Shown piece after piece: positions 4,180 to 45,719 of a DNA stretch of 46,219 nucleotides. The translations under genes were made by a program, and so were the position numbers. The notes beneath the pieces are model-generated. The model was not told where the DNA came from. It saw nothing but the letters and a program-made list of their open reading frames with translations, and did not search any database. Each line of letters opens with the position of its first letter. The stretch's first letter is position 1. This DNA is from a virus (lineage: Duplodnaviria > Heunggongvirae > Uroviricota > Caudoviricetes): the IMG/VR virus record IMGVR_UViG_2706794662_000004; one strand, given 5' to 3'.

Positions 4180-4371
4180 TTACTCCCCGTTCACCGAAAA
4201 ATCACGATAGAAACGTTTCCACATACGATAAGTCTGCGCGAGTTGTTCACCACGAAACATCGCCTTCCTGGCCTTCATGTTTTCCTTGTGAGACTTTCGA
4301 TCTATGAACCAAAACCATTGCTGGAACACACAAAGCAAGAGACACAAAGATAATATCCACTGATTACCCAT
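4180..4371 (-). CDS. Small membrane protein (63 aa) translationally coupled to repA
   Basis: Internal Met (MGNQWILSLCLLLCVFQQWFWF...) whose ATG at 4371-4369 overlaps the repA stop codon; the longer 102-aa reading overlaps repA by 125 nt. Confidence 0.35.
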   Translation of the reverse strand: MGNQWILSLCLLLCVFQQWFWFIDRKSHKENMKARKAMFRGEQLAQTYRMWKRFYRDFSVNGE

Positions 4372-7300
4372 AGAAAGCGCCCTGCTCTTCGTAGCTGCAT
4401 GAGCTATTCCCGGTAATGTATTCTCGTAACCGCCGCAGTTCATTGCTGGACAAGTGATCCATGAACTCTGTGAGGTACAGAGATGCAAACGTCATAGCTA
4501 TGCTGGTTGATGACCATGATGACATAGTGGCCAGCTCCTCACCGGAAAGCGCACTCATCGCCCAGGACTCAGGAACAGCCACCGGCAATACGGCCAAAGC
4601 CTCAGAAATTACTGAATGAGGGGCGTTTTGAACCTGCTCGTTTGTGGATCGCGTTTTATCATCCATATATATATTGAGATCCAAATCGCGATCCATTTCG
4701 ATGGCTGTCTTCTCGGCTTTACGCGTTTTTAGGGTTAGGCCATCTTTCTGACGCTGAACAAGAATATCCAGCATAAATGCCGCTGATTCAGGCTCAACAA
4801 AACGCAAGGTTGGACGCTTATCGCCGTCTCTGCCGCGACGTTTACCTGTTTTAAGGCCAAGAGAGTCGCAAATGTTTTTAAACAACGCTTCCGGCACTTT
4901 AGGCTTCCCTTTTGGCGTCATAAAACCACCAATGTGCAGAACGTTATTCAACAGGTCACGGCGTTCGGCTGTCATGAGATTATCTCGAGCGAATTTGAGA
5001 CGCTCCTGAGTCGCCTCGCCGGTCATAGTCTCAGGGTTGATACCGCAGTCGATAAAGTACTGCCGGAGAGTTGCTGATTTAAGCGCATAGAAACCGCGCG
5101 CCCCGACTTCAACAGTAGGAGTAGCTTTTACCTTGTGATCGATTATTCCAGGGAATTTAGTTTTAAAGACATCATCAGCCTGCTCGCGAGTCATCGCGGT
5201 CACTACAAAATATTGCCACTGTCCCGCCTGACGGTATGCGTAGGTAAAATTGATGGCTGCTTCTTCCCGGTCGTAACGACGAGCTGTTACCTCATCTAAA
5301 AGCATTGTTTCATAGCGGCGAACTTTGTCTCGAGCACCATCGAAATAGAATTTCAGTGTGCCTTCTTCAACCGGTAGTTTCAGTTCGTTTTCAATATCCC
5401 AGCGGACAAGTTTTGCCTGTTCTTCAAGCGTCAGCGCGCGTTTTTTTAGCAGTTCTTCACGCTCTGATTCTTGTGGAGTTTCTGTATTGAGGTGCAGATC
5501 CAGTGTCTGTTCCCACACAATATCCCGCGCTTCTTTACGCAGATCTTTACCGATATCATTCGCAGCATAATCGGTGCCCAGCGGCGATACCTTATAACCG
5601 TCGCTGTGCATGATGCAGATCATGTTGCTGGCGTAGTCGTTACGCGCAGTCGCTTCAATTGCGGCTGCTTTAATTTTCATCCTGGTAAAGTCGGTATTGG
5701 CCACCCCCATTGATATACGGTCGCCATCGAAAATGACATCCGTCAGTTCACCGTTCATACCTGCGGTAGCAAGCAATGCCTGGGCGAATGCTCGTTCTAT
5801 TTTTTGCGGGTCAGTTTCACGTTTTGCACGAGCTTTATCAAAGCCGATAATAAATTCTTTTGCTGTACGGTCGCGGCGTAGCATTTGCACTGCGTCGCTG
5901 GGTACAACTTCACCACAGAACATGCCGAAATGACGGTCAAAATGTTTTTGCTCAATCGACACGCCGGATGAAATAGACGGGCTATAAATCAGGCCGTCGT
6001 ATTTTTTGACCATCTTTTTCGGTTGATTGGTAAATGCTTCAACTTCTGGCTCTGGTTTGTTTTTCTGGTTTACACACAGAAATTTCTTACCAGGAAAATG
6101 CATTCTCAGGGTGGCTGTCACATCTTCTGCAAAGGTGGAGCTGTCGGTGGCCAACATGATTTTTTCGCCATCCGATACAGCTTTCACCACCTCGGTCATG
6201 ATGCGATCTTTTTCTGTATAAAAAACCCGGATTGGCTCACCTGTTTCGCGGTTGCGAACATCAACAGGTAATTCAATTACGTGGATCTGCAGCCATGCCG
6301 GTAAACCTAGTTCTTCACGGCGTTTCATAGCCAGTTCAGCCAGGTCAACCAGCAGATCGTTCGCATCAGCATCCACCATGATTGGGTGTTGTTCCGTTCT
6401 GGCCAGCGCGTCAATTAGCGTATTGAATACAGCCACCGGGTTTTCCATAGCCCGACCGGAAAGAACGGCACGTAGCCCTTGTGTGGCCTCGTCAAAGCCA
6501 AAATAGTCGTGCTGGCGCATCAACGGTTGCCAGCAGTTTTTAACAATCGAGTTTATGCAGATGGTCAGTTTACTGGCGTATGGAGCCATTTCCTGATAGC
6601 CAGGGTCCTGATAGTGCAGGATATCGGCTTTTACACCTTTTCCTTCAGTCATCATTTCCCACAGGCCACCAATAAGGGAAACACGGTGAGCTACAGAGAT
6701 ACCGCGTTCTGAGCTATGCATTAACGGTCGTAACAATCCAGTAGATTTGCCGGAACCCATACCAGCACGAACGATGACGATCCCCTGTAGTGATTGCACG
6801 TACTTCAGGACGTCATCGGTCATTACCGAAGTTTCAAAACGCTTATAGGTGATATGTTGAGGGCGTTTATTGGGATCAGTTATGCGTTCGCTGAAAGAGC
6901 GCGGAGCCTGGGCAATACGGCACTTTTTATTCAGGCGACGGGCAATGTGGTCTTTTACCGTAGCGCGATAGATATTTTCCAGCCCCATTTCACGCAGAAC
7001 GATGCAGAACATGTTAAACAAATCTGACGGACTGTTAGGAACCGGACAGGTTAGCATGCCAATATCCACCGCTCTCAGCAGCTCTTTGGCAAAAGTACGA
7101 CGGTTATCCCGCTTAATTGTCTTCAGGCGGTTGAGCGTCAGAGATAGCAAATCAGTGCCGGTTTTCAGGCGGTTTGCTGTTGCAAATAGTTGACGTGCTG
7201 TTTCACGAAGTCCACGTAGTTTGTGCAGGTCGTTGAAGTCACTGCACTCCATTTGCGGATCGTCTTCAAAAGTTGGATAGACGCAGCGGACATCGTTGAA

Positions 7301-8359
7301 TTTCGATAAGATTTCATAGCCAGTCCGCAGGCCGGTATTCCCTTTTCCTTCTGTGGCTGATTTCCGGTCATTATCCAGTGCGCAGGTGATTTTTGCCGCC
7401 GGGTACATGTTTACCAGTTGTTCCACAACATGAACCATGTTGTTAGCGGATACAGCGACAACCACAGCGTCAAAGCGTTTATCTTTTTTCGTGGCAAGCC
7501 AGATGGATGCACCAGTAGCAAAACCTTCTGTAACAGCGATGTTTTGCGCCCCTTTCAGCTCACCGATAACAAAGCAGGCACCGACGAAATCGCCGCTGGT
7601 TACTGCGCTGGTCTGGTATTTCCCACCTTGTTTGTCGATTCGCTGCCAACCCACAATACGACCATCGTAACGACCGTCCAGGTGAGCCAGAGGGATAGCC
7701 ATATATGTGGTTGGCCCCCGGTTCCATTTCGCACTGTCGTGACTGGTCACGCGACGCACATCACATGAACTAAAAACGTCACGAATACCTTTTTTAATCG
7801 CATATGGCCATGAGCCGTCTTCTGCAGGAGCATGTTCCCACGCGCTGTGGAATGCCAGCCATCCCAGCAAACGTTCATGGTCCATTTGGTTGTTTTTCAG
7901 GTCATTAATTCGTTTTTGTTCTTCACGGCGACGACGTGCTTCGGCCTGACGTTTTATTCTTGCCCGTTCTTCTTCCGGTTGTGCGACCACGGTCGCATTA
8001 TTCCGTTGTTGCTCACGGCGATATTCAGAAAACAGGAAGGAGAAACCGCTCCATGAGCCAGCATCGCTGCCTTTATGGACGAAGTTAATGAACGGGTAAT
8101 CAATCCCTTTGCTGTGTTCCAGCCGAGAGTAAATTTCTACGCGTCCTTTGAGGCTCTTTTCGAGAGCTTCTGGAGATGTTTTATTGTATGAAGAGTAACG
8201 CTCAACACCCCCGCGAGGGTTGAGTTGGATGTTGTCGGAACAGGCAGACCAGTTGATACCAGCCATCTGTGCCAGCTCGGTTAGTTCATCCCGTGCTGCT
8301 TCAATTAGCGAGAACGGATCGCTGCCAAAGCGATCCGCATAGAAATCGTTTAATGTCAT
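4364..8359 (-). CDS. repA: Multifunctional replication protein RepA (primase-helicase, 1331 aa)
   Basis: Size close to N15 RepA (about 1324 aa as I recall); Walker A GMGSGKST in the central helicase part; position upstream of the cB immunity region as in N15. Confidence 0.85.
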   Translation of the reverse strand: MTLNDFYADRFGSDPFSLIEAARDELTELAQMAGINWSACSDNIQLNPRGGVERYSSYNKTSPEALEKSLKGRVEIYSRLEHSKGIDYPFINFVHKGSDAGSWSGFSFLFSEYRREQQRNNATVVAQPEEERARIKRQAEARRRREEQKRINDLKNNQMDHERLLGWLAFHSAWEHAPAEDGSWPYAIKKGIRDVFSSCDVRRVTSHDSAKWNRGPTTYMAIPLAHLDGRYDGRIVGWQRIDKQGGKYQTSAVTSGDFVGACFVIGELKGAQNIAVTEGFATGASIWLATKKDKRFDAVVVAVSANNMVHVVEQLVNMYPAAKITCALDNDRKSATEGKGNTGLRTGYEILSKFNDVRCVYPTFEDDPQMECSDFNDLHKLRGLRETARQLFATANRLKTGTDLLSLTLNRLKTIKRDNRRTFAKELLRAVDIGMLTCPVPNSPSDLFNMFCIVLREMGLENIYRATVKDHIARRLNKKCRIAQAPRSFSERITDPNKRPQHITYKRFETSVMTDDVLKYVQSLQGIVIVRAGMGSGKSTGLLRPLMHSSERGISVAHRVSLIGGLWEMMTEGKGVKADILHYQDPGYQEMAPYASKLTICINSIVKNCWQPLMRQHDYFGFDEATQGLRAVLSGRAMENPVAVFNTLIDALARTEQHPIMVDADANDLLVDLAELAMKRREELGLPAWLQIHVIELPVDVRNRETGEPIRVFYTEKDRIMTEVVKAVSDGEKIMLATDSSTFAEDVTATLRMHFPGKKFLCVNQKNKPEPEVEAFTNQPKKMVKKYDGLIYSPSISSGVSIEQKHFDRHFGMFCGEVVPSDAVQMLRRDRTAKEFIIGFDKARAKRETDPQKIERAFAQALLATAGMNGELTDVIFDGDRISMGVANTDFTRMKIKAAAIEATARNDYASNMICIMHSDGYKVSPLGTDYAANDIGKDLRKEARDIVWEQTLDLHLNTETPQESEREELLKKRALTLEEQAKLVRWDIENELKLPVEEGTLKFYFDGARDKVRRYETMLLDEVTARRYDREEAAINFTYAYRQAGQWQYFVVTAMTREQADDVFKTKFPGIIDHKVKATPTVEVGARGFYALKSATLRQYFIDCGINPETMTGEATQERLKFARDNLMTAERRDLLNNVLHIGGFMTPKGKPKVPEALFKNICDSLGLKTGKRRGRDGDKRPTLRFVEPESAAFMLDILVQRQKDGLTLKTRKAEKTAIEMDRDLDLNIYMDDKTRSTNEQVQNAPHSVISEALAVLPVAVPESWAMSALSGEELATMSSWSSTSIAMTFASLYLTEFMDHLSSNELRRLREYITGNSSCSYEEQGAFYG
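7982..7997. promoter_or_regulatory. 16-bp perfect palindrome TGCGACCACGGTCGCA, candidate SopB centromere site (copy 1, inside repA)
   Basis: Exact palindrome, one of five copies; resembles the F sopC core TGGGACCACGGTCCCA. Confidence 0.5.
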
Positions 8360-10221: not shown

Positions 10222-10467
10222 ATGTTCAGGAAACCGTCGAAGCCAGAATTAAGGTATTCGGGGGTAAGAAATGAATATGTTATCTGGTGTCCAACTTGTG
10301 GTTACAGGACACGACCAGATAGTAATAAGCAGTCTGTAATTGCCGATTGGTATTTATCAAATCAGCCAGGTAATAAGCATATAGAAAATCTTTGGATTAA
10401 GCGTTACTTGGAAATCAGAGAGGGTGCGACCGTGGTCGCACAAGAAAATGAAAATAACGCCATTTAA
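10222..10467 (+). CDS. Small Cys-containing protein (CPTCGY), unknown function
   Basis: ORF starting at internal ATG 10222 immediately after the previous stop; contains palindrome copy 2 in its 3' end. Confidence 0.35.
   Translation: MFRKPSKPELRYSGVRNEYVIWCPTCGYRTRPDSNKQSVIADWYLSNQPGNKHIENLWIKRYLEIREGATVVAQENENNAI
10425..10440. promoter_or_regulatory. 16-bp palindrome TGCGACCGTGGTCGCA (copy 2)
   Basis: Exact palindrome, same family as 7982, 14806, 17816, 18036. Confidence 0.5.
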
Positions 10468-14799: not shown

Positions 14800-14805
14800 A
14801 AACTG

Positions 14806-14821
14806 TGCGACCACGGTCGCA
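14806..14821. promoter_or_regulatory. 16-bp palindrome TGCGACCACGGTCGCA (copy 3)
   Basis: Exact palindrome in the intergenic region upstream of the methyltransferase gene. Confidence 0.5.
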
Positions 14822-14907
14822 CAGCACAAAAACGAAAAAGCTTGGCAAAATGACGGTTTTTAGTTATTGTTTTGTTAAGTTGGGTTTTTTGTACCCAACA
14901 GCCAACA

Positions 14908-16511: not shown

Positions 16512-17008
16512 TGCAGTCATCATTACGCAAAGCTGTCACAGCTGCTATTGGTGGCGGGGCTATTGCCATAGCGTCTATGCTCATCACTGGCCCAAGTGGT
16601 AACGATGGTCTGGAAGGTGTCAGTTACATACCATACAAAGATATTGTTGGCGTATGGACTGTATGTTACGGACACACTGGAAAAGACATCATGCTAGGTA
16701 AAACGTATACCGAAGCAGAATGCAAAGCTCTCCTGAATAAAGACCTTGCCACTGTCGCCAGACAAATTAACCCGTACATCAAAGTCGATATACCGGAAAC
16801 AACGCGCGGCGCTCTTTACTCGTTCGTTTACAACGTGGGCGCTGGTAATTTCAGAACATCGACGCTTCTTCGCAAAATAAACCAGGGCGATATCAAAGGC
16901 GCATGTGATCAGCTACGTCGCTGGATATCTGCTGGCGGTAAGCAATGGAAAGGCCTGATGACTCGTCGTGAGATTGAGCGTGAAGTCTGTTTGTGGGGTC
17001 AACAATGA
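16508..17008 (+). CDS. SAR endolysin (T4-type lysozyme with N-terminal signal-anchor-release domain)
   Basis: Gly/Ala-rich N-terminal TM ([20 protein letters not shown]) followed by lysozyme catalytic region EG...D...[10 protein letters not shown]. Confidence 0.8.
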
Positions 17009-17442
17009 GCAGGGTAACCGCGATTATCTCCGCTCTGGTTATTTGCATCATCGTCTGCCTGTCGTGGGCTGTTAATCATTACCGTGATAACGCCATCGCC
17101 TACAAAGAGCAGCGCGATAAAGCCACATCCACAATCGCTGATATGCAGAAGCGTCAACGTGACGTAGCAGAACTCGATGCCAGATATACAAAGGAGCTTG
17201 CTGATGCTAACGCGACTATCGAAAGCCTCCGTGCTGATGTTTCTGCTGGGCGTAAGCGCCTGCAAGTCGCCGCCACCTGTGCAAAGTCAACGACCGGAGC
17301 CAGCGGCATGGGCAATGGAGAAAGCCCAAGACTTACAGCAGATGCTGAACTCAATTATTACCGTCTCCGAAGTGGGATCGACAGGATAACTGCGCAGGTT
17401 AACTACTTGCAGGAATACATCAAGACGCAATGCCTGAATTAA
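17005..17442 (+). CDS. Rz: i-spanin Rz
   Basis: N-terminal TM then coiled-coil; sequence very close to lambda Rz as I recall it; start overlaps the endolysin stop (ATGA). Confidence 0.75.
17204..17389 (+). CDS. Rz1: o-spanin Rz1 (lipoprotein) embedded in the +1 frame of Rz
   Basis: Signal peptide with lipobox (FLLGVSAC) followed by a Pro-rich mature region, entirely inside Rz. Confidence 0.6.
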
Positions 17443-17483
17443 TCCCTCTGTATCAAAAACGAGCTCAATTTGTTGGATAGTGA

Positions 17484-17795
17484 ATGAAAATTTATATTGC
17501 CGGGCCAATGACGGGATATGAGAACTTTAATCGTGACGCCTTTAATAAAGAGGCAGATCGTTTGTCACGACATGGTCACTCTGTCTTGAATCCAGCCACT
17601 TTGCCTAATGGTCTGACACAACGTGAATACATGGATATTTGCTTTGCAATGCTTCGTTGTGCTGATGCTATTTTGATGCTTCCTGGCTGGAAAGCGTCTG
17701 CTGGAGCAACTGCTGAGTATCATTACGCATACAAGATGGAGATGCCGGTATTCACTACGCTGAATTACCCGCCAGCTTGTTCCTCTGTAGCATAA
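17484..17795 (+). CDS. Nucleoside 2-deoxyribosyltransferase-like / DUF4406-like protein
   Basis: 103-aa ORF starting MKIYIAGPMTG, which resembles that family as I recall it. Confidence 0.45.
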   Translation: MKIYIAGPMTGYENFNRDAFNKEADRLSRHGHSVLNPATLPNGLTQREYMDICFAMLRCADAILMLPGWKASAGATAEYHYAYKMEMPVFTTLNYPPACSSVA

Positions 17796-17815
17796 AAATC
17801 TCTTTGTTTCTCGTT

Positions 17816-17831
17816 TGCGACCGTGGTCGCA
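17816..17831. promoter_or_regulatory. 16-bp palindrome TGCGACCGTGGTCGCA (copy 4), immediately left of repeat element copy A
   Basis: Exact palindrome. Confidence 0.5.
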
Positions 17832-17842
17832 CATTAAATACC

Positions 17843-18015
17843 GCGCTGCATCGTCGCCGTATTTCCGCATTAACCATGACCGTAGCCCGACGGGGAACTC
17901 CTCTGCGCGAGTGTGCGGAAATAATCAAAAACGATGCACACCGGGTTTTTACCGCGCTAATGATTCGCGGGTTTGTCCCTCATGCTCGCCAGTCCTGTGC
18001 GAGGGTGGAAGAAAC
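17843..18015. repeat. Noncoding repeat element, copy A (about 173 bp, about 90 percent identical to copy B)
   Basis: Aligns base-for-base with 19628-19801; contains conserved stems (ccgtagcccgacgg; accgcg-loop-cgcggg with variable loop; ccctcatgctcgc...gcgaggg). Confidence 0.6.
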
Positions 18016-18035
18016 AGGGCATGTATTCAGGAGCG

Positions 18036-18051
18036 TGCGACCGTGGTCGCA
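18036..18051. promoter_or_regulatory. 16-bp palindrome TGCGACCGTGGTCGCA (copy 5), immediately right of repeat element copy A
   Basis: Exact palindrome, 25 bp upstream of the RBS of the 286-aa cargo gene. Confidence 0.5.
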
Positions 18052-18075
18052 CGGTATCTTTGTCAGGAGGTTTTG

Positions 18076-18936
18076 ATGAAAGAGTTGCAAAAAATTAATT
18101 CAATAATGGAAAGGTTAAGTGCTCTTGAGCGTAAGCTGGACGATTGTGGAAAGCTGTGTGTTGAAAAGCAAAATGAGCTTTACCGGGAATTTTTTACAAT
18201 CGTAAGTGAGCTGATGCCAATTGTTAATAACTGCCTGATGACATCCAGATTTTTTAATGTCGATGCTACTACATCCAGAAAATTTTCTGTGAAAATTCAA
18301 GAAAGAGTTTCTGGTAGTGTGACAAGAGAGATGGCTGAACAGTTGGTGGCAATGAGCAATAAAACAAAAAGAAAAAAGGCATTGCTTGTAACAGCAAATC
18401 AGCTTTCAGGGCGCGTTGACTTTCAGGTCAGACAGGGTGGGCGTGTACTGGTAAATGATGCGTTCGTTGGACGTAGCTTTAGTCCTTACTCGATGAAATA
18501 TGATGTTGATGCAGATGATCAGGATATCAGCATTTCCTGGAAATCTGAGACAGCAGGGATTGTATTAACAGCAGAGTTGTTGAATGATGATAAAAATGAT
18601 GTCCAGCATCATTTGGACGAAAAGAATCATATTTCTGAAATTTGTATGAAGCCACGCAGCGGAATGACTTTATTGTCACGCACTCTTGCTGCTGGCTTTT
18701 CTGCACCGGAAAAACGTGTGCTTCTGGTAGTGCCTGAAGATGCAGATATTCGACCACTGAATGGCTGTGATGTTATTAGTGCAAAAACATTGCATACCCG
18801 CGTCATTCCTGTACCGGATGTGGTCATTATTGATGATGTTGAGAAATGCAAGTCTGTTTCCTCAACTGCCACAATCAAGCGAATTTTACGTTGTAGCACG
18901 TCGGCTGTTGTATTCCGGAAGCAGTTACATAACTAA
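18076..18936 (+). CDS. Hypothetical protein (286 aa), first gene of the AT-rich cargo cassette
   Basis: GGAGG RBS 6 nt before ATG 18076; the track ORF from 17815 is an upstream extension across the noncoding repeat; no recognisable motif. Confidence 0.6.
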   Translation: MKELQKINSIMERLSALERKLDDCGKLCVEKQNELYREFFTIVSELMPIVNNCLMTSRFFNVDATTSRKFSVKIQERVSGSVTREMAEQLVAMSNKTKRKKALLVTANQLSGRVDFQVRQGGRVLVNDAFVGRSFSPYSMKYDVDADDQDISISWKSETAGIVLTAELLNDDKNDVQHHLDEKNHISEICMKPRSGMTLLSRTLAAGFSAPEKRVLLVVPEDADIRPLNGCDVISAKTLHTRVIPVPDVVIIDDVEKCKSVSSTATIKRILRCSTSAVVFRKQLHN

Positions 18937-19061
18937 CCAGTTTTGTTTTGCAGAACATCCTCAACTAAAAGCTTATAGAAAGAGAGCCTGAGATATTTTT
19001 TCTGTCTCTCGTAGTTGTTTGTTTTTTTTTCGAACAGACTTACAACTTACAGGATATAAAC

Positions 19062-19511
19062 ATGCAAGAAGAAGCAAATAAAATTCTTGTTGATTTATTG
19101 AAGAAGGCCAGCGATGGAATTGATTCCGCCATTGTATTCAGTCAGGCTCAAATTCCGGATGTTGTTCATCAGTTGCTGGTATGGAATATGGTTGATAGCC
19201 TGATTAAAACATTAATAACCATTTCAACAATTCCGCTGGTTATTTGGTTTATGAAGAAACAGTGCAAAAAAGTTGAAATTGGTAAGTTCGATAATGAAGG
19301 ACGCTCATGCGATAATGGACAGCCTAAATACAAACCAACTATGCTTTGGGAAAGTGACGGTAGGTTAAGTGGTTTTGTCTTACCATTAGTAGCAGTTTTT
19401 ATTCTATGGTTCAGTTTTATTATTTCTGTAGTAGCCAATATGACATGGTTAAAAATTTGGCTGGCACCTAAGTTATATCTAATCGAATACGCAGCATCAC
19501 TAATTAAATAG
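19062..19511 (+). CDS. Membrane protein with two predicted TM helices (149 aa), second gene of the cargo cassette
   Basis: Hydrophobic segments LITISTIPLVIWFM and GFVLPLVAVFILWFSFIISVVA; AT-rich. Confidence 0.6.
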   Translation: MQEEANKILVDLLKKASDGIDSAIVFSQAQIPDVVHQLLVWNMVDSLIKTLITISTIPLVIWFMKKQCKKVEIGKFDNEGRSCDNGQPKYKPTMLWESDGRLSGFVLPLVAVFILWFSFIISVVANMTWLKIWLAPKLYLIEYAASLIK

Positions 19512-19627
19512 TCCATTACAAAAGCCATTCGCTACTGAGTGGCTTTGATAATGGCTTATACCCTACACGGGATAACTTAACTGATATCCCTTTTAACGGA
19601 TAAAGGTATTCAAGCCTGACACATCAT

Positions 19628-19801
19628 GCGCTGTATCGTCGTCGTATTCCCGTCTTAACAGAGACCGTAGCCCGACGGGGAACTCTTTCTGCGCGAGTGT
19701 GCGGGAATAATCAAAAACGATGCACACCGGGTTTTTACCGCGTTTATGGTTCGCGGGTTTGCCCCTCATGCTCGCCAGTCCTGTGCGAGGGTGGAAGAAA
19801 C
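19628..19801. repeat. Noncoding repeat element, copy B, immediately upstream of cos
   Basis: Aligns with 17843-18015; the 68-aa track ORF at 19697-19903 lies inside it but conservation is at nucleotide level. Confidence 0.6.
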
Positions 19802-19869
19802 CGGATATTAATGCAAGTGATAAACATTCTCATTTTCTCGGGTCCTTTCCGGCGATCTGACAGGCTACG

Positions 19870-19881
19870 GGGCGGAAGGCG
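19870..19881. other. cosN, predicted 12-nt cohesive end GGGCGGAAGGCG; cosB-like repeats follow to about 20050
   Basis: Flanks caggctacg and cgcgggttttcgctatttatgaaaattttccggtttaaggcg match my recollection of the lambda cos region; the central 12-mer differs from lambda GGGCGGCGACCT. Confidence 0.55.
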
Positions 19882-20058
19882 CGCGGGTTTTCGCTATTTA
19901 TGAAAATTTTCCGGTTTAAGGCGTTTCCGTTCTTCTTCTCCGTAACTTCATGTTTTTATTTAAAACACCCACTGAAAAGAAAGGAAACGACAGATGCTGA
20001 AAACGGGCTTTTTGGCCTTTGTCGTTTCCTTTCTCTGTTTTTGTCCGTGGAATGAACA

Positions 20059-20578
20059 ATGGAAGTCAACAAAAAGCAGCTGGCTGATATTTTCGGTGCG
20101 AGTATCCGTACCATTCAGAACTGGCAGGAGCAGGGAATGCCCGTTTTGCGAGGCGGTGGCAAGGGTAATGAGGTGCTTTATGATTCTGCCGCCGTCATAA
20201 AATGGTATGCCGAAAGGGATGCTGAAATTGAGAACGAAAAGCTGCGCCGGGAGGTTGAAGAACTGCGGCTGGCCAGCGAGGCAGATCTTCACCCCGGAAC
20301 ACTTGAATTTGAGCGCCATCGCCTGACTCGTGCTCAGGCGACGGCGCAGGAACTGAAAAATGCCAAAGAATCGGCTGAAGTGGTGGAAACCGCATTCTGT
20401 ACTTTCGTGCTGTCGCGTATAGCAAGGGAAATATCCAGTATTCTCGACGGTATTCCTCTGTCGGTGCAGCGACGTTTTCCTGAGCTGGATAACCGGCATA
20501 TTGATTTCCTGAAACGGGATATCATCAAAGCCATGAACAAAGCAGCCGCGCTGGATGAACTGATACCGGGGTTGCTGA

Positions 20579-20604
<26 letters not shown>
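20059..20604 (+). CDS. nu1: Terminase small subunit (lambda Nu1-like)
   Basis: N-terminus MEVNKKQLADIFGASIRTIQNWQEQGMPVLRGGGKGNEVLYD matches recalled lambda Nu1. Confidence 0.9.
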
Positions 20605-42500: not shown

Positions 42501-42980
42501 TCGCATACCCACAGCGCCAGCGCATCCAGTACAGATTTGGGGACGAAAACCACATCGTCGTTTGATTACGGCACTAAATCCACGAATAACACTGGTGCGC
42601 ATACCCATAGTTTAAGTGGCAGCACGAATGCAGCTGGTAATCACAGCCATAGAGATGGCCGTCGATTTAACCCCAGTGTTTTTAAAGATACTTATCAATA
42701 TGGTTATACAAGCTCAGGTCAAAATACCTGGGGTGTACAAGGCTCAGTAGGTATGTCTACGGGGTGGTTAGCGAATACCAGTACAGATGGTAATCATAGC
42801 CATTCACTGTCCGGCACAGCAGCATCTGCAGGTGCACACGCGCATACTGTCGGTATTGGTGCTCATACGCACTCCGTTGCGATTGGTTCACATGGACACA
42901 CCATCACCGTTAACGCTGCTGGTAACGCGGAAAACACCGTCAAAAACATCGCATTTAACTATATTGTGAGGCTTGCATAA
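39582..42980 (+). CDS. stf: Side tail fibre protein Stf (1132 aa)
   Basis: N-terminus [38 protein letters not shown] and His-rich C-terminus (HSHSLSGT ... [15 protein letters not shown] ... [11 protein letters not shown]) match recalled lambda Stf. Confidence 0.85.
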
Positions 42981-43555
42981 TGGCATTCAGAATGAGTGAA
43001 CAACCACGGACCATAAAAATTTATAATCTGCTGGCCGGAACTAATGAATTTATTGGTGAAGGTAACGCATATATTCCGCCTCATACAGGTCTGCCAGCAA
43101 ACAGTACCGATATTGCACCACCAGATATTCCTGCTGGCTTTGTGGCTGTTTTCAACAGTGATGAGGCATCGTGGCATCTCGTTGAAGATCATCGGGGTAA
43201 AACGGTTTATGACGTGGCTTCCGGCGACGCGTTATTTATTTCTGAACTCGGTCCGTTACCGAAAAATGTTACCTGGTTATCGCCGGAAGGGGAGTTTCAG
43301 AAGTGGAACGGCACAGCCTGGGTGAAGGATACGGAAGCAGAAAAACTGTTCCGGATCCGGGAGGCGGAAGAAACAAAAAACAACCTGATGCAGGTAGCCA
43401 GTGAGCATATTGCGCCGCTTCAGGATGCTGTAGATCTGGAAATCGCAACAGAGGAAGAAACCTCGTTGCTGGAAGCTTGGAAAAAGTATCGGGTGTTGCT
43501 GAACCGTGTTGATACATCACTATCTCCAGATATCGAGTGGCCAAGTCAACCATAA
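42980..43555 (+). CDS. tfa: Tail fibre assembly protein Tfa
   Basis: [28 protein letters not shown] matches recalled lambda Tfa. Confidence 0.85.
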
Positions 43556-43587: not shown

Positions 43588-44553
43588 TTAATTATCAGTA
43601 GATTGTTCCTCTAGTAACAACTCAATTCTGCTTAGTATTTCTTTAGATATTTTGCGGCTATCAATTTTTATAGTTACAAAATTACCTTTATATCTAGCCG
43701 TGATCCCTTCCCCATATTTTTTCTCGTCTTTTGTTTTTTCCTCGTCGCCAACCAGAACAGAGTCAGATAATATTTGTATAATCCGTGAAGCTTCTAAATC
43801 CTCGCCGTTTTTTTTAATTACTAGAAGATGATGAGCAGCATTGCTCATGGCAGCCATGTTTTTTTTGTAAACCTTAAACAAAGAATCTCCAGCACGAGCT
43901 GACAGTTCTCCTGGATGATTGAAGATAGCTAATATATCTTTTGGTAGACCAGCTGTATTAATACAGCGAGTGATAATATTTCTATCTATATTTTCAGCCT
44001 CGGCTAATGCTTTAACGTTACCATCAAAGTCATTTAGCTTGCGTAAGTATCTCTTTCCTCTTTCGTATGCACTAATAGGTCTATAATCGTTACCAATTTG
44101 GGATAACCAATGCATCTGTTCATCGTCGAGATCACCAATTAAGACGCGATAGTCACATCCTGTTAATATCGCTGCTTTTCTTCTACGTGAGCCGTCAGCG
44201 ACTTCAACGATTCCAGATACTTTTCTGGCGAAAGCTGGATTTTGTTGTCCAGACGTTAGAAAAGATGGGATTAAATCGGCTAGAGAGGATTCATTTAATA
44301 AATCTTGATCGCGTTCATTACCTAGCCATACCATTGTTGCCATTTCAACTTTATCTGCGGGAATTGTCTCTAACTTAAAGTTAACATTACGTCCGCATAC
44401 TGGCAAAGTTATGCTGTTACCGGTTAATGAACTCAGTTGACGTTTTAAATCACCAACCATAGGTGATACGGGCTGATGTTCAGGGGCATGATGATTATTA
44501 CTCATAATGCGATTAATATCTGGAGCATTTTTTAGAAGAGAGCGCTGTTTCAT
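43588..44553 (-). CDS. sopB: Partition protein SopB (ParB family)
   Basis: 321-aa ORF immediately downstream of and overlapping sopA; ParB-like features. Confidence 0.75.
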   Translation of the reverse strand: MKQRSLLKNAPDINRIMSNNHHAPEHQPVSPMVGDLKRQLSSLTGNSITLPVCGRNVNFKLETIPADKVEMATMVWLGNERDQDLLNESSLADLIPSFLTSGQQNPAFARKVSGIVEVADGSRRRKAAILTGCDYRVLIGDLDDEQMHWLSQIGNDYRPISAYERGKRYLRKLNDFDGNVKALAEAENIDRNIITRCINTAGLPKDILAIFNHPGELSARAGDSLFKVYKKNMAAMSNAAHHLLVIKKNGEDLEASRIIQILSDSVLVGDEEKTKDEKKYGEGITARYKGNFVTIKIDSRKISKEILSRIELLLEEQSTDN

Positions 44554-45719
44554 TATTCGTTCTCCCAGCGAGGTTTTATTAGATCATCAAAAATTTCTCG
44601 GCAAACAGGGTCCCATATAGAAACAGCATTTCTCCATGCATTCAATGTTGAACGTTGGTTTGCTGCTTGTTCAAATACTGTTCTCATTTTTATCTGGCCT
44701 TTACCTACTTCATCGGTAACGCGTACAACCTGACGTAATACCATTGATCCCCATGTATTTCTTATTTGTTCTTCCATCCATCGTGATTGATTCCCTGTAG
44801 TGAGACTATATTTAGTCAGAAGTAAGCGAACGGTTGGCTCAAATCCACCTAGGTCAACGCTTTCCAATAGATCGAGAAGCATTGTGAAAAACTGTAGAAC
44901 AGAAGCGTAATCAAATAATTCTGCAGGTGTAGCAACAACAATAACGTCAGCGGCACAAACAACGTTAATGGTTCCTGTACCGAGGTTCGGAGCACTATCT
45001 ATAACGATAACATCGTAGTTATCCCAAACTGATTCAATAGCTGCGCGCAGCATAAGGTGTGGAGGATGAGGCAATTTACCCTGAGCATGATATTGCATGA
45101 GATCTGTTTCTATACGATGTAAGGCTAGGCAGCTAGGGATAATGTCTAGCCCAGGCCAACATGTTGGCTTTATAGCATATTCAGCGTTATCGCGTTCTCC
45201 TAAGTAAAATGGCAGTAAAGTATCCTCGGCATGGATATGTAAATCAGGAACATAACCGTGATACATAGAGGCCGTGCCTTGAGGATCGTTACCTTCAACC
45301 AAAAGAACACGATGACCTTGTAATGCTAACCATTGAGCTTGATGTACCGCAGACGATGTTTTATAAACGCCGCCTTTGTGTGACATAACGGCAAGCACAA
45401 CAGGGTTTTTATCTTGTGGTCGTTGGTTTGGGTTGCCAAAAACTGCTCGCATACTGTTGATTTGATCTATGGTATAACCAGCACGACGTTCAATTCTTCC
45501 TCTCATTTCAAAGTCAGGTGCAGGTAAACGCCCGCTCTTCTCAGCATCTCTAATTGCTTGAGGAGTTACACCAATTAAATCTGCTACTTCAGTTATACCC
45601 CATCGGCGGGTGATACGCCGAGCTTCAGGACTATCATCACCGAATTGAGCGATAGCAATTGCTTGGGTCATTTCTTGACCTCTCGTAACACAATCTTGCA
45701 ATAACTTTTTCAAAGACAT
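44553..45719 (-). CDS. sopA: Partition ATPase SopA (ParA family)
   Basis: 388-aa ORF with Walker A KGGVYKTS and N-terminal HTH; extensive identity to F SopA as I recall it. Confidence 0.9.
   Translation of the reverse strand: MSLKKLLQDCVTRGQEMTQAIAIAQFGDDSPEARRITRRWGITEVADLIGVTPQAIRDAEKSGRLPAPDFEMRGRIERRAGYTIDQINSMRAVFGNPNQRPQDKNPVVLAVMSHKGGVYKTSSAVHQAQWLALQGHRVLLVEGNDPQGTASMYHGYVPDLHIHAEDTLLPFYLGERDNAEYAIKPTCWPGLDIIPSCLALHRIETDLMQYHAQGKLPHPPHLMLRAAIESVWDNYDVIVIDSAPNLGTGTINVVCAADVIVVATPAELFDYASVLQFFTMLLDLLESVDLGGFEPTVRLLLTKYSLTTGNQSRWMEEQIRNTWGSMVLRQVVRVTDEVGKGQIKMRTVFEQAANQRSTLNAWRNAVSIWDPVCREIFDDLIKPRWENE

Follow-up and report, generated by a model that had tools for sequence, protein, structure and literature searches.

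A duplicated noncoding element between the lysis and packaging genes of an N15-like phage, and its probable identity as an RNA-level module of Escherichia lambdoid phages

The window analysed here is the whole 46,219-nucleotide DNA of a Caudoviricetes virus (IMG/VR record IMGVR_UViG_2706794662_000004), which is lambdoid and nearly identical to the Escherichia phages PhiR46_1 and YDC107_1. Its + strand carries, in order, the holin, endolysin and Rz genes, a DUF4406 gene, one copy (A) of a noncoding element, the accessory genes ORF286 and ORF149 (ORF, open reading frame), a second copy (B) of the element, a cos-like region, and the genes for Nu1 and terminase A (Table 1). A putative cos site is placed between copy B and Nu1 (GGGTCCT, 19840-19846) by its resemblance to lambda and 434; cosQ is annotated in the 434 record. 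The element is the subject of this report. On balance we favour its interpretation as a discrete noncoding RNA-level module of ~178 nt in Escherichia and Shigella lambdoid phages, oriented with the late (pR') transcript, with a three-domain fold, a tentatively proposed cis role in processing or stability and a duplication in the window that arose by recombination.

A repeat search resolved copies A and B into two direct-repeat blocks, 17843-17900/19628-19685 (86%) and 17902-18029/19688-19815 (91%), with a 1-nt indel between the blocks. By global alignment the copies were 89% identical, with the same base in 167 of 188 columns. The covariance model of the 5' domain scored 134 and 138 bits at copies A and B respectively against 11.8 bits for the next-best match in the window, which is far beyond chance. 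An earlier reading of the sequence alone had proposed a duplicated element of ~173 bp, and this was borne out with slightly shifted boundaries. It had also placed a similar sequence in lambda; alignment confirmed this at lambda 46868-47033, with ~82% identity over the first 107 nt and a common 3' end, GGAAGAAACCGGAC.

Table 1. Coordinates of the two copies of the element, their predicted structural parts and the adjoining features of the window
Feature	Position	Strand	Remarks
Rz spanin gene	16993-17442	+	Pfam Phage_lysis, E = 8e-37; upstream landmark
DUF4406 gene	17484-17795	+	
N15-type SopB centromere site (inverted repeat, IR), left of copy A, predicted	17815-17832	.	One mismatch to the 18-bp N15 IR1/IR4 sequence
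Copy A of the noncoding module	17843-18020	+	~178 nt; repeat pair; covariance-model match 17837-17953, 134 bits
Copy A, 5' domain	17847-17938	+	P1 17847-17854 with 17931-17938; P2 17860-17868 with 17915-17923; apical CCC-GAC-GGG 17886-17894
Copy A, hairpin H2	17951-17971	+	ACCGCG-CTAATGATT-CGCGGG; hairpin of the sequence-only reading
Copy A, H-type pseudoknot	17985-18020	+	S1 17985-17989 with 17999-18003; S2 17992-17998 with 18014-18020; L3 (GGTGGAAGAA) 18004-18013
N15-type SopB centromere site (IR), right of copy A, predicted	18035-18052	.	Also scores as a weak terminator-like hairpin
ORF286 accessory gene	18076-18936	+	Between copies; annotated in PhiR46_1; goes with copy A in L014, L041 and L055
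ORF149 accessory gene	19062-19511	+	Between copies; left of the single element copy in L064
Left flank of copy B	19500-19627	+	Common to one context class (mEp460, 2B8, JLK-2012 type); coverage 31-87 loci; left-flank cluster 1
Copy B of the noncoding module	19628-19806	+	Repeat pair; covariance-model match 19622-19739, 138 bits
Copy B, 5' domain	19632-19724	+	P1 19632-19639 with 19717-19724; P2 19645-19653 with 19701-19709; apical hairpin 19671-19679
Copy B, hairpin H2	19737-19757	+	ACCGCG-TTTATGGTT-CGCGGG
Copy B, H-type pseudoknot	19771-19806	+	S1 19771-19775 with 19785-19789; S2 19778-19784 with 19800-19806; L3 19790-19799
Nu1 small terminase gene	20059-20604	+	Pfam Phage_Nu1, E = 1e-95; downstream landmark

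The element is widespread among phages and prophages of E. coli. A 301-nt query around copy A matched 424 phage records at 80-94% identity, including lambda, 434, mEp460 and all groups of Shiga toxin (Stx)-converting phages. With copy B as the query, matches were obtained in 3796 of 5426 complete E. coli genomes (~70%), at up to six places per genome, and almost no RefSeq annotation lay beneath them. The lambda element is located between bor and lambdap78; in K-12 the element lies at 579009-579175, flanked by borD and ybcV of the cryptic prophage DLP12. The lambda element was unannotated in the records examined, the manually curated 434 genome annotates nothing at this place, and literature searches by gene name, sequence word and topic found no published description of it; the match to the sequence word consisted of tick-pathogen primers only and was discarded.

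The host range is narrow. When a single genome of each prokaryotic species was scanned, genuine copies were confined to Escherichia. Apparent hosts outside the genus were rejected, as most of the contigs concerned (~3.5 or 48.4 kb, low coverage) were lambda spike-in or Oxford Nanopore Technologies control-strand DNA. Such lambda control DNA has been left in public assemblies (L128-L162) that include Pseudomonas, relatives of Bacillus, Flavobacterium and metagenome-assembled genomes. Among phages with an Rz homologue, every member of the Stx-phage groups carried the element (124/124, 47/47, 23/23 and 17/17), as did 173 of 253 records named 'Escherichia phage' and ~80% of Escherichia and Shigella records together, compared with 0 of 116 for Salmonella and 0 of 34 for Klebsiella. 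The 5'-domain covariance model found no copy in phi80, HK97, P22 or N15, nor in Salmonella epsilon34 or Klebsiella phiKp_30, despite Rz proteins in the latter two that are 95-98% identical to that of the window.

The analysis of edges, place and orientation covered 128 instances, comprising the two window copies, annotated records and 120 IMG/VR loci. About 128 loci aligned to each copy and only 2-3 to the cassette between the copies. The 200 nt at the left edge fell into at least 13 unrelated sequence classes and those at the right edge into at least 16. Wherever Rz was detectable (116 of 116 loci) it preceded the element on the same strand, at a distance of 13-2187 nt, and in 98 of 98 loci the element was followed on that strand by a small terminase gene of one of three unrelated types, at 223-2039 nt. 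In the minimal layout, as in Sakai prophage Sp9 and in L025, the element begins 12-13 nt past the Rz stop codon and cos follows ~15 nt past its end. Accessory genes (bor, DUF3950, Rha, KilA, DUF4406, ORF286 and ORF149) appear to have been inserted only in those two short gaps. Directly 5' of the element, a motif of ~30 nt, GATAAAGGTATTCAAGCCTGACACAT (window 19598-19627), was present in ~48 of the 128 instances and in four otherwise different left contexts (left flanks of L003, L022, L030 and L066); it may represent an optional 5' extension of the module.

ORFs of 46-99 codons overlap each copy, and some depositors have annotated a 'hypothetical protein' over it (PhiR46_1 19569-19745, minus strand, equivalent to window 19593-19769; mEp460_059). 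If these annotations were correct, the module would encode small proteins. However, the annotated ORFs vary in strand and frame among records, and the curated 434 record and the Prokaryotic Genome Annotation Pipeline place nothing at the element. For any given frame, at most 30 of the 80 variants of the element that were compared lacked stops, and no frame was conserved. The 5' domain had lengths of 84, 92, 93 and 94 nt with 1-nt indels in the most conserved part, so the indels are not multiples of three. The annotated genes are probably spurious ORFs, and a protein-coding role for the module is highly improbable.

The same 80 variants were used for the comparison of structure. The + strand appears from these sequences to fold in three parts, namely a bipartite hairpin (P1/P2), a hairpin (H2) and an H-type pseudoknot. 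Overall, 97% of pair cells were paired, against 26-63% in slid controls. In the 5' domain, P1 (8 bp) and P2 (9 bp) flank an internal loop of 5/7 nt, and a conserved apical region of 46 nt, which includes a small CCC-N3-5-GGG hairpin, caps the two helices. Alignment of 52 distinct 5' halves with RNAalifold gave TGYATCGT/ACGATRCA for P1 and TATTCCCGC/GCGGGAATA for P2. Standard pairs made up 96.5% of the P1/P2 cells, against 35-63% when the 3' partners were slid by 1-3 columns. The covariation score of these helices was reached by 0 of 500 shuffles, four pairs were changed on both sides and several traversed a U-A, U.G, C-G pathway. The differences between the window copies follow the same pattern, being wobble-compatible in P1 and compensated in P2 (TATTTCCGC/GCGGAAATA in copy A, TATTCCCGT/GCGGGAATA in copy B). 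Lambda has TATTCCCGG/CCGGGAATA, in which the change is compensated by transversions.

H2 follows P1 in position, and is the hairpin that the sequence-only reading had described. Its stems, ACCGCG/CGCGGG, are identical in the two copies, with three differences in the loop. Of the parts of the larger fold, which also has a bipartite hairpin and a pseudoknot, it carries the least information. The hairpin is kept with other sequence in variants, as the compensated CTGTG/CGCAG of the 434 type and the CCGCGC/GCGCGG of another type. In the pseudoknot, S1 has 5 bp (CTCGC/GCGAG), L1 has 2 nt and S2 has 7 bp. The 5' arm of S2, GTCCKGT, lies inside the S1 loop, and its 3' arm, ACMGGAC, follows the purine-rich L3 (GGUGGAAGAA) and forms the 3' edge of the module. 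In copy B, S2 (GTCCTGT/ACCGGAT) has one U-C mismatch. Among 30 distinct sequences 96.9% of pseudoknot cells were paired, against 26-54% in slid controls, and the covariation score was 0.25 compared with 0.13 in shuffles (0/500). In one variant type S1 is wholly swapped to TGCCAG/CTGGCA with the same topology. Across the variants, three stems have been replaced by unrelated complementary sequences.

The strand of the putative structure was examined by folding an alignment of 26 sequences filtered at 96% identity. The + strand gave -37.9 kcal/mol against -20.5 +/- 3.5 kcal/mol for column-shuffled alignments (z = -5.0, 0/200), while the reverse-complement alignment gave z = -1.8 only. Among the 29 proposed pairs, a G.U state occurred in 18 and an A.C state in six (233 and 34 cells respectively; binomial p = 0.011). 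The excess of G.U together with the weaker folding of the minus strand indicates that the functional strand is the + strand, which is the late-operon sense. We therefore hold with reasonable confidence that the module has a conserved + strand RNA structure, as far as can be judged from sequence comparison. The earlier suggestion of a conserved noncoding structure rather than coding sequence is in agreement with this, given the conservation outside the window, the absence of a conserved frame and the covariation in support of the structure.

These patterns bear on the possibility that the element acts as DNA, either as linker homology for the swapping of accessory cassettes or as the target, close to the packaging region, of a DNA-binding protein. 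Such a role would fit the mosaic flanks, which change exactly at the module borders with different morons anchored on both sides, the duplication in the window, which is the expected product of recombination through linkers, and the minimal layout, in which the element lies ~15-35 nt from cos. By contrast, duplex DNA would not be expected to show compensatory changes, whole-stem swaps or a strong surplus of G.U relative to A.C states on one strand, and the variable terminase distance and three unrelated terminase types noted above argue against a DNA-level site. To our knowledge, lambda packaging has been defined without the element, and this was also counted against a DNA-level function, which we regard as improbable.

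The module could also be a neutral spacer hitch-hiking with Rz in a gene pool of recent divergence, the covariation stemming from a few linked haplotypes. The narrow taxonomic range and high identity would be expected in that case, two dominant haplotypes do give many spurious covarying column pairs, and many lambdoid phages do without the element, which is partly degraded in lambda. Against this, the module has stayed intact while its flanks were replaced at least 13 times on the left and 16 on the right at the same boundaries, and the three-state wobble pathways, the G.U/A.C imbalance, the one-strand folding signal and the three stem replacements would not be expected of a spacer. Both the DNA-linker and the neutral-spacer interpretations are thus disfavoured by the strand asymmetry of the wobble states and by the swapping of stems; the neutral spacer appears unlikely.

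For an RNA-level module, the question is then how it is expressed and what it does. Scans for promoters and terminators found no such signal inside the element, and it is therefore most simply part of the pR' late transcript. RNase III processing sites have a coaxial helix of ~20 bp made up of two helices of about one turn each with an internal loop. The module has a comparable geometry to the T7 R1.1-like sites, with P1 of 8 bp, an asymmetric 5/7-nt loop, P2 of 9 bp and helices that are supported by covariation. It also resembles the T7-type RNase III signals and the lambda sib and N-leader sites in being a predicted cis element between gene blocks of a long polycistronic phage transcript. 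It differs from RNase III sites in having no sequence kinship with them, a much larger apical region and two further domains, one of which is the pseudoknot. This geometry, together with a terminal pseudoknot that could plausibly block exonucleases, makes cis processing or stability the leading mechanism. The module would be read out as part of the pR' late mRNA, the P1-loop-P2 helix would be processed in the manner of a phage T7-type RNase III site, the pseudoknot would block 3' exonucleases and the lysis-gene segment would thereby be insulated from the accessory-gene and packaging segments. As a specific mechanism this is put forward tentatively.

Several observations weigh against the favoured interpretation as a whole. 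All sequences are from one genus and 80-95% identical, and they fall into two main haplotypes, by which naive covariation is inflated. By the stricter measure of how many pairs changed on both sides, 7 of 500 shuffles for P1/P2 and 65 of 500 for the pseudoknot reached the observed value, which is only moderately significant. Single-sequence folding energies were ordinary (z = -0.6 to -1.2). The lambda/DLP12 version has a degraded S1 with two mismatches and no clear H2. The processing or stability hairpins known so far are simpler than a three-domain fold with a pseudoknot. Finally, the module is optional, and a generic mRNA stabilizer would not be predicted to be confined to a single host genus. 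An all-against-all covariation scan was dropped as evidence, being dominated by the linkage of the two haplotypes.

Some of these features are better accommodated by a trans-acting noncoding RNA, or 'RNA moron', released from the late transcript or expressed from a context-dependent promoter and serving as a decoy, scaffold or anti-defence agent on an E. coli-specific protein or RNA. Like other morons the module is discrete, sharp-edged and optional, it is found in one host genus although the neighbouring Rz is common to Salmonella and Klebsiella phages, and a multi-domain pseudoknot fold with conserved loops is typical of protein- or ligand-binding RNAs. However, no promoter- or terminator-like signal was found inside the module or consistently beside it, and loop conservation is uninformative at such shallow divergence. 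In uninduced enterohaemorrhagic E. coli, moreover, no Hfq cross-linking and analysis of cDNA (Hfq-CRAC) peak fell on the module, and EcOnc10-12 map to a minus-strand terminator outside it. A trans-acting role is accordingly considered rather unlikely, if a serious alternative to processing or stability in cis.

The apparent overlap of EcOnc10-12 (Hfq-CRAC, Tree et al. 2014) with the element was rejected on account of an offset of ~136 nt between NC_002695.1 and NC_002695.2, the published positions being the lower ones. After correction, the EcOnc12 peak (minus strand) coincides with the terminator of ECs_1788, at least 12 nt to the right of the element, with some uncertainty because the ~+136-nt offset was calibrated on EcOnc03, 5 kb away. 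The EcOnc10-12 peaks appear to represent the terminator or 3' end of the minus-strand gene that adjoins the element (ECs_1788 in Sp9, L164, ~1779648-1779705 of NC_002695.2).

The module could not be assigned to a known class of element. Rfam 15 gave nothing on either copy at gathering thresholds and nothing at E <= 10 over 17400-20100. The HK022 put RNAs and lambda nut sites are cis-acting antitermination RNAs. They resemble the predicted RNA of the module in being structured, orientation-dependent and read in the direction of a lambdoid operon; they lie just downstream of pL and pR, whereas the module follows the lysis genes. A put RNA consists of two neighbouring stem-loops through which RNA polymerase becomes terminator-resistant in cis, and a nut site of boxA and a 5-bp stem with a GNRA-like pentaloop (boxB). 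The lambda copy shares AGCCCUGA with boxB of nutR. A nut-site assignment was rejected owing to the lack of boxA, the late-operon location and an apical loop that varies (GAC, GACA, GACC, UAC, UUGC, GAGA) in ways incompatible with the boxB pentaloop. The prophage small RNAs (the AgvB/AsxR anti-sRNAs, Pas sRNAs, STnc100, Esr41 and EcOnc) share with the module a noncoding nature, conserved late-region positions and the same Stx and lambdoid prophages. The anti-sRNA, Pas and STnc100 RNAs are located just downstream of pR' and upstream of the holin gene, have 50-100 nt and bind Hfq (PMC4104026; bioRxiv 10.64898/2026.05.13.724894). Membership of that group was rejected, as the element lies downstream of Rz, showed no terminator in scans and was not matched by the Rfam models for AgvB, AsxR, STnc100 and Esr41.

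Further candidates were also rejected. The pseudoknot has the classical dimensions of a -1 frameshift pseudoknot (5 bp, 2 nt, 7 bp, 10 nt) and, in one variant type, a GGGUUUG heptamer 9 nt upstream; this heptamer is GGCGUUG or AGGGUUA in other types and no overlapping frames are conserved. A dispersed repeat of the repetitive extragenic palindromic (REP), enterobacterial repetitive intergenic consensus (ERIC) or miniature inverted-repeat transposable element (MITE) kind was excluded, given that the ends (TGCGCTG.../...ACMGGAC) are not inverted repeats and that all copies are syntenic. Similarities in the 3' part to Chi (GATGGTGG) and to the Nu1 R site were dropped, either for variability of the motif or because the element is also carried alongside terminases that have no relationship to Nu1.

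The origin of the duplication was approached through phages with related layouts. In locus L064 a single element copy is preceded by ORF149 and a 130-nt flank, while L014, L041 and L055 have copy A followed by ORF286; L014 (5869-5875) retains the two-copy layout with an 828-bp deletion equivalent to window 18661-19488. These layouts point to the window as a recombinant that joined right-hand and left-hand accessory genes with both anchor copies kept. A genome of the form element - IR - ORF286 would have recombined with one of the form ORF149 - flank - element - cos to yield element - ORF286 - ORF149 - element. The 11% difference between the copies implies that they are not a recent duplication in place. 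Judging from these sequences, mosaic recombination brought together two moron cassettes, each with a copy of the element, and the duplication is a by-product of this event without a separate function. Homologous recombination between the copies, which are direct repeats at a distance of 1.8 kb, could delete the cassette. ORF286 and ORF149 had no Pfam or PADLOC match. The 149-aa product of the latter appears hydrophobic from a reading of its sequence, and the pair occupies the usual place of defence or exclusion morons.

The sequence-only reading had also linked copy A to a 16-bp palindrome on both of its sides. The palindromes are real and do lie on both sides, but they are separate from the element and correspond to centromere sites of the N15 SopB type. 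The palindrome GTGCGACC-NN-GGTCGCAC occurs at five sites in the window (7981-7998, 10424-10441, 14805-14822 and the two beside copy A) against 0.03 expected by chance. They were compared with the 18-bp N15 IR1/IR4 centromere sequence as printed in PMC7205306 (Table 4). Per site comparison, four of the five, including that at 18035, match the 18-bp sequence exactly, and a mismatch of one each is noted for the 17815 and 7981 sites; the flanks of N15 IR1 are also present at the 7981 site. N15 has four IR sites (IR1-IR4) and lacks the module, whereas the window has five, two of which bracket copy A.

The replicon type agrees with this assignment. The window encodes a protelomerase with TelK domains (246-2159, +), a 1331-aa RepA-like Toprim/helicase protein (4364-8359, -), SopB (43588-44553, -) and SopA (44553-45719, -), a gene set that identifies an N15-like linear plasmid-prophage, and it is on this basis that the palindromes were assigned to SopB. 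They are predicted partition sites that happen to bracket copy A and are unrelated to the RNA module. One E. coli RefSeq assembly contains a near-identical record of 46,243 bp as a replicon in its own right (NZ_LR883007.1). Degenerate IR palindromes also occur right after the element in integrating lambda-like phages, namely 2B8 (L005, ~2700), L030, L036 and L077, which points to exchange of an 'element + IR' unit between the two phage types. In 2B8 both arms of the palindrome are changed (GTGCAACCGTGGTTGCAC).

Two other parts of the window matched Rfam families. Matches to C4 antisense RNA (2813-2899, -, 73.6 bits) and isrK (2925-2998, -, 62.8 bits) lie side by side and are probably a c4/CA-RNA-type anti-repressor control region as in P1 and N15. 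A full-length IS009 match (43323-43521, +, 224.5 bits) is located inside an ORF (42980-43555), and from this location the IS009 'sRNA' family may describe coding sequence.

Few genomes have been studied as closely as that of lambda, and still its block of ~170 nt at 46868-47033 is without annotation in the records examined. A more speculative proposal is that the module represents a new class of functional RNA in the late operon of lambda and every Stx phage in the database, with a specific activity tuned to the Escherichia host; candidate activities would include modification or pausing of RNA polymerase, binding of a phage or E. coli protein, ligand sensing and self-processing. The module also serves as a precise marker of two permissive insertion sites for accessory genes in the Rz-cos region. 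Should the module act in the processing of late mRNA, in the expression of lysis genes or in linking lysis to packaging, this would bear on the biology of Shiga-toxin phages and on phage engineering, for which the Rz-cos interval is a favoured site of payload insertion.

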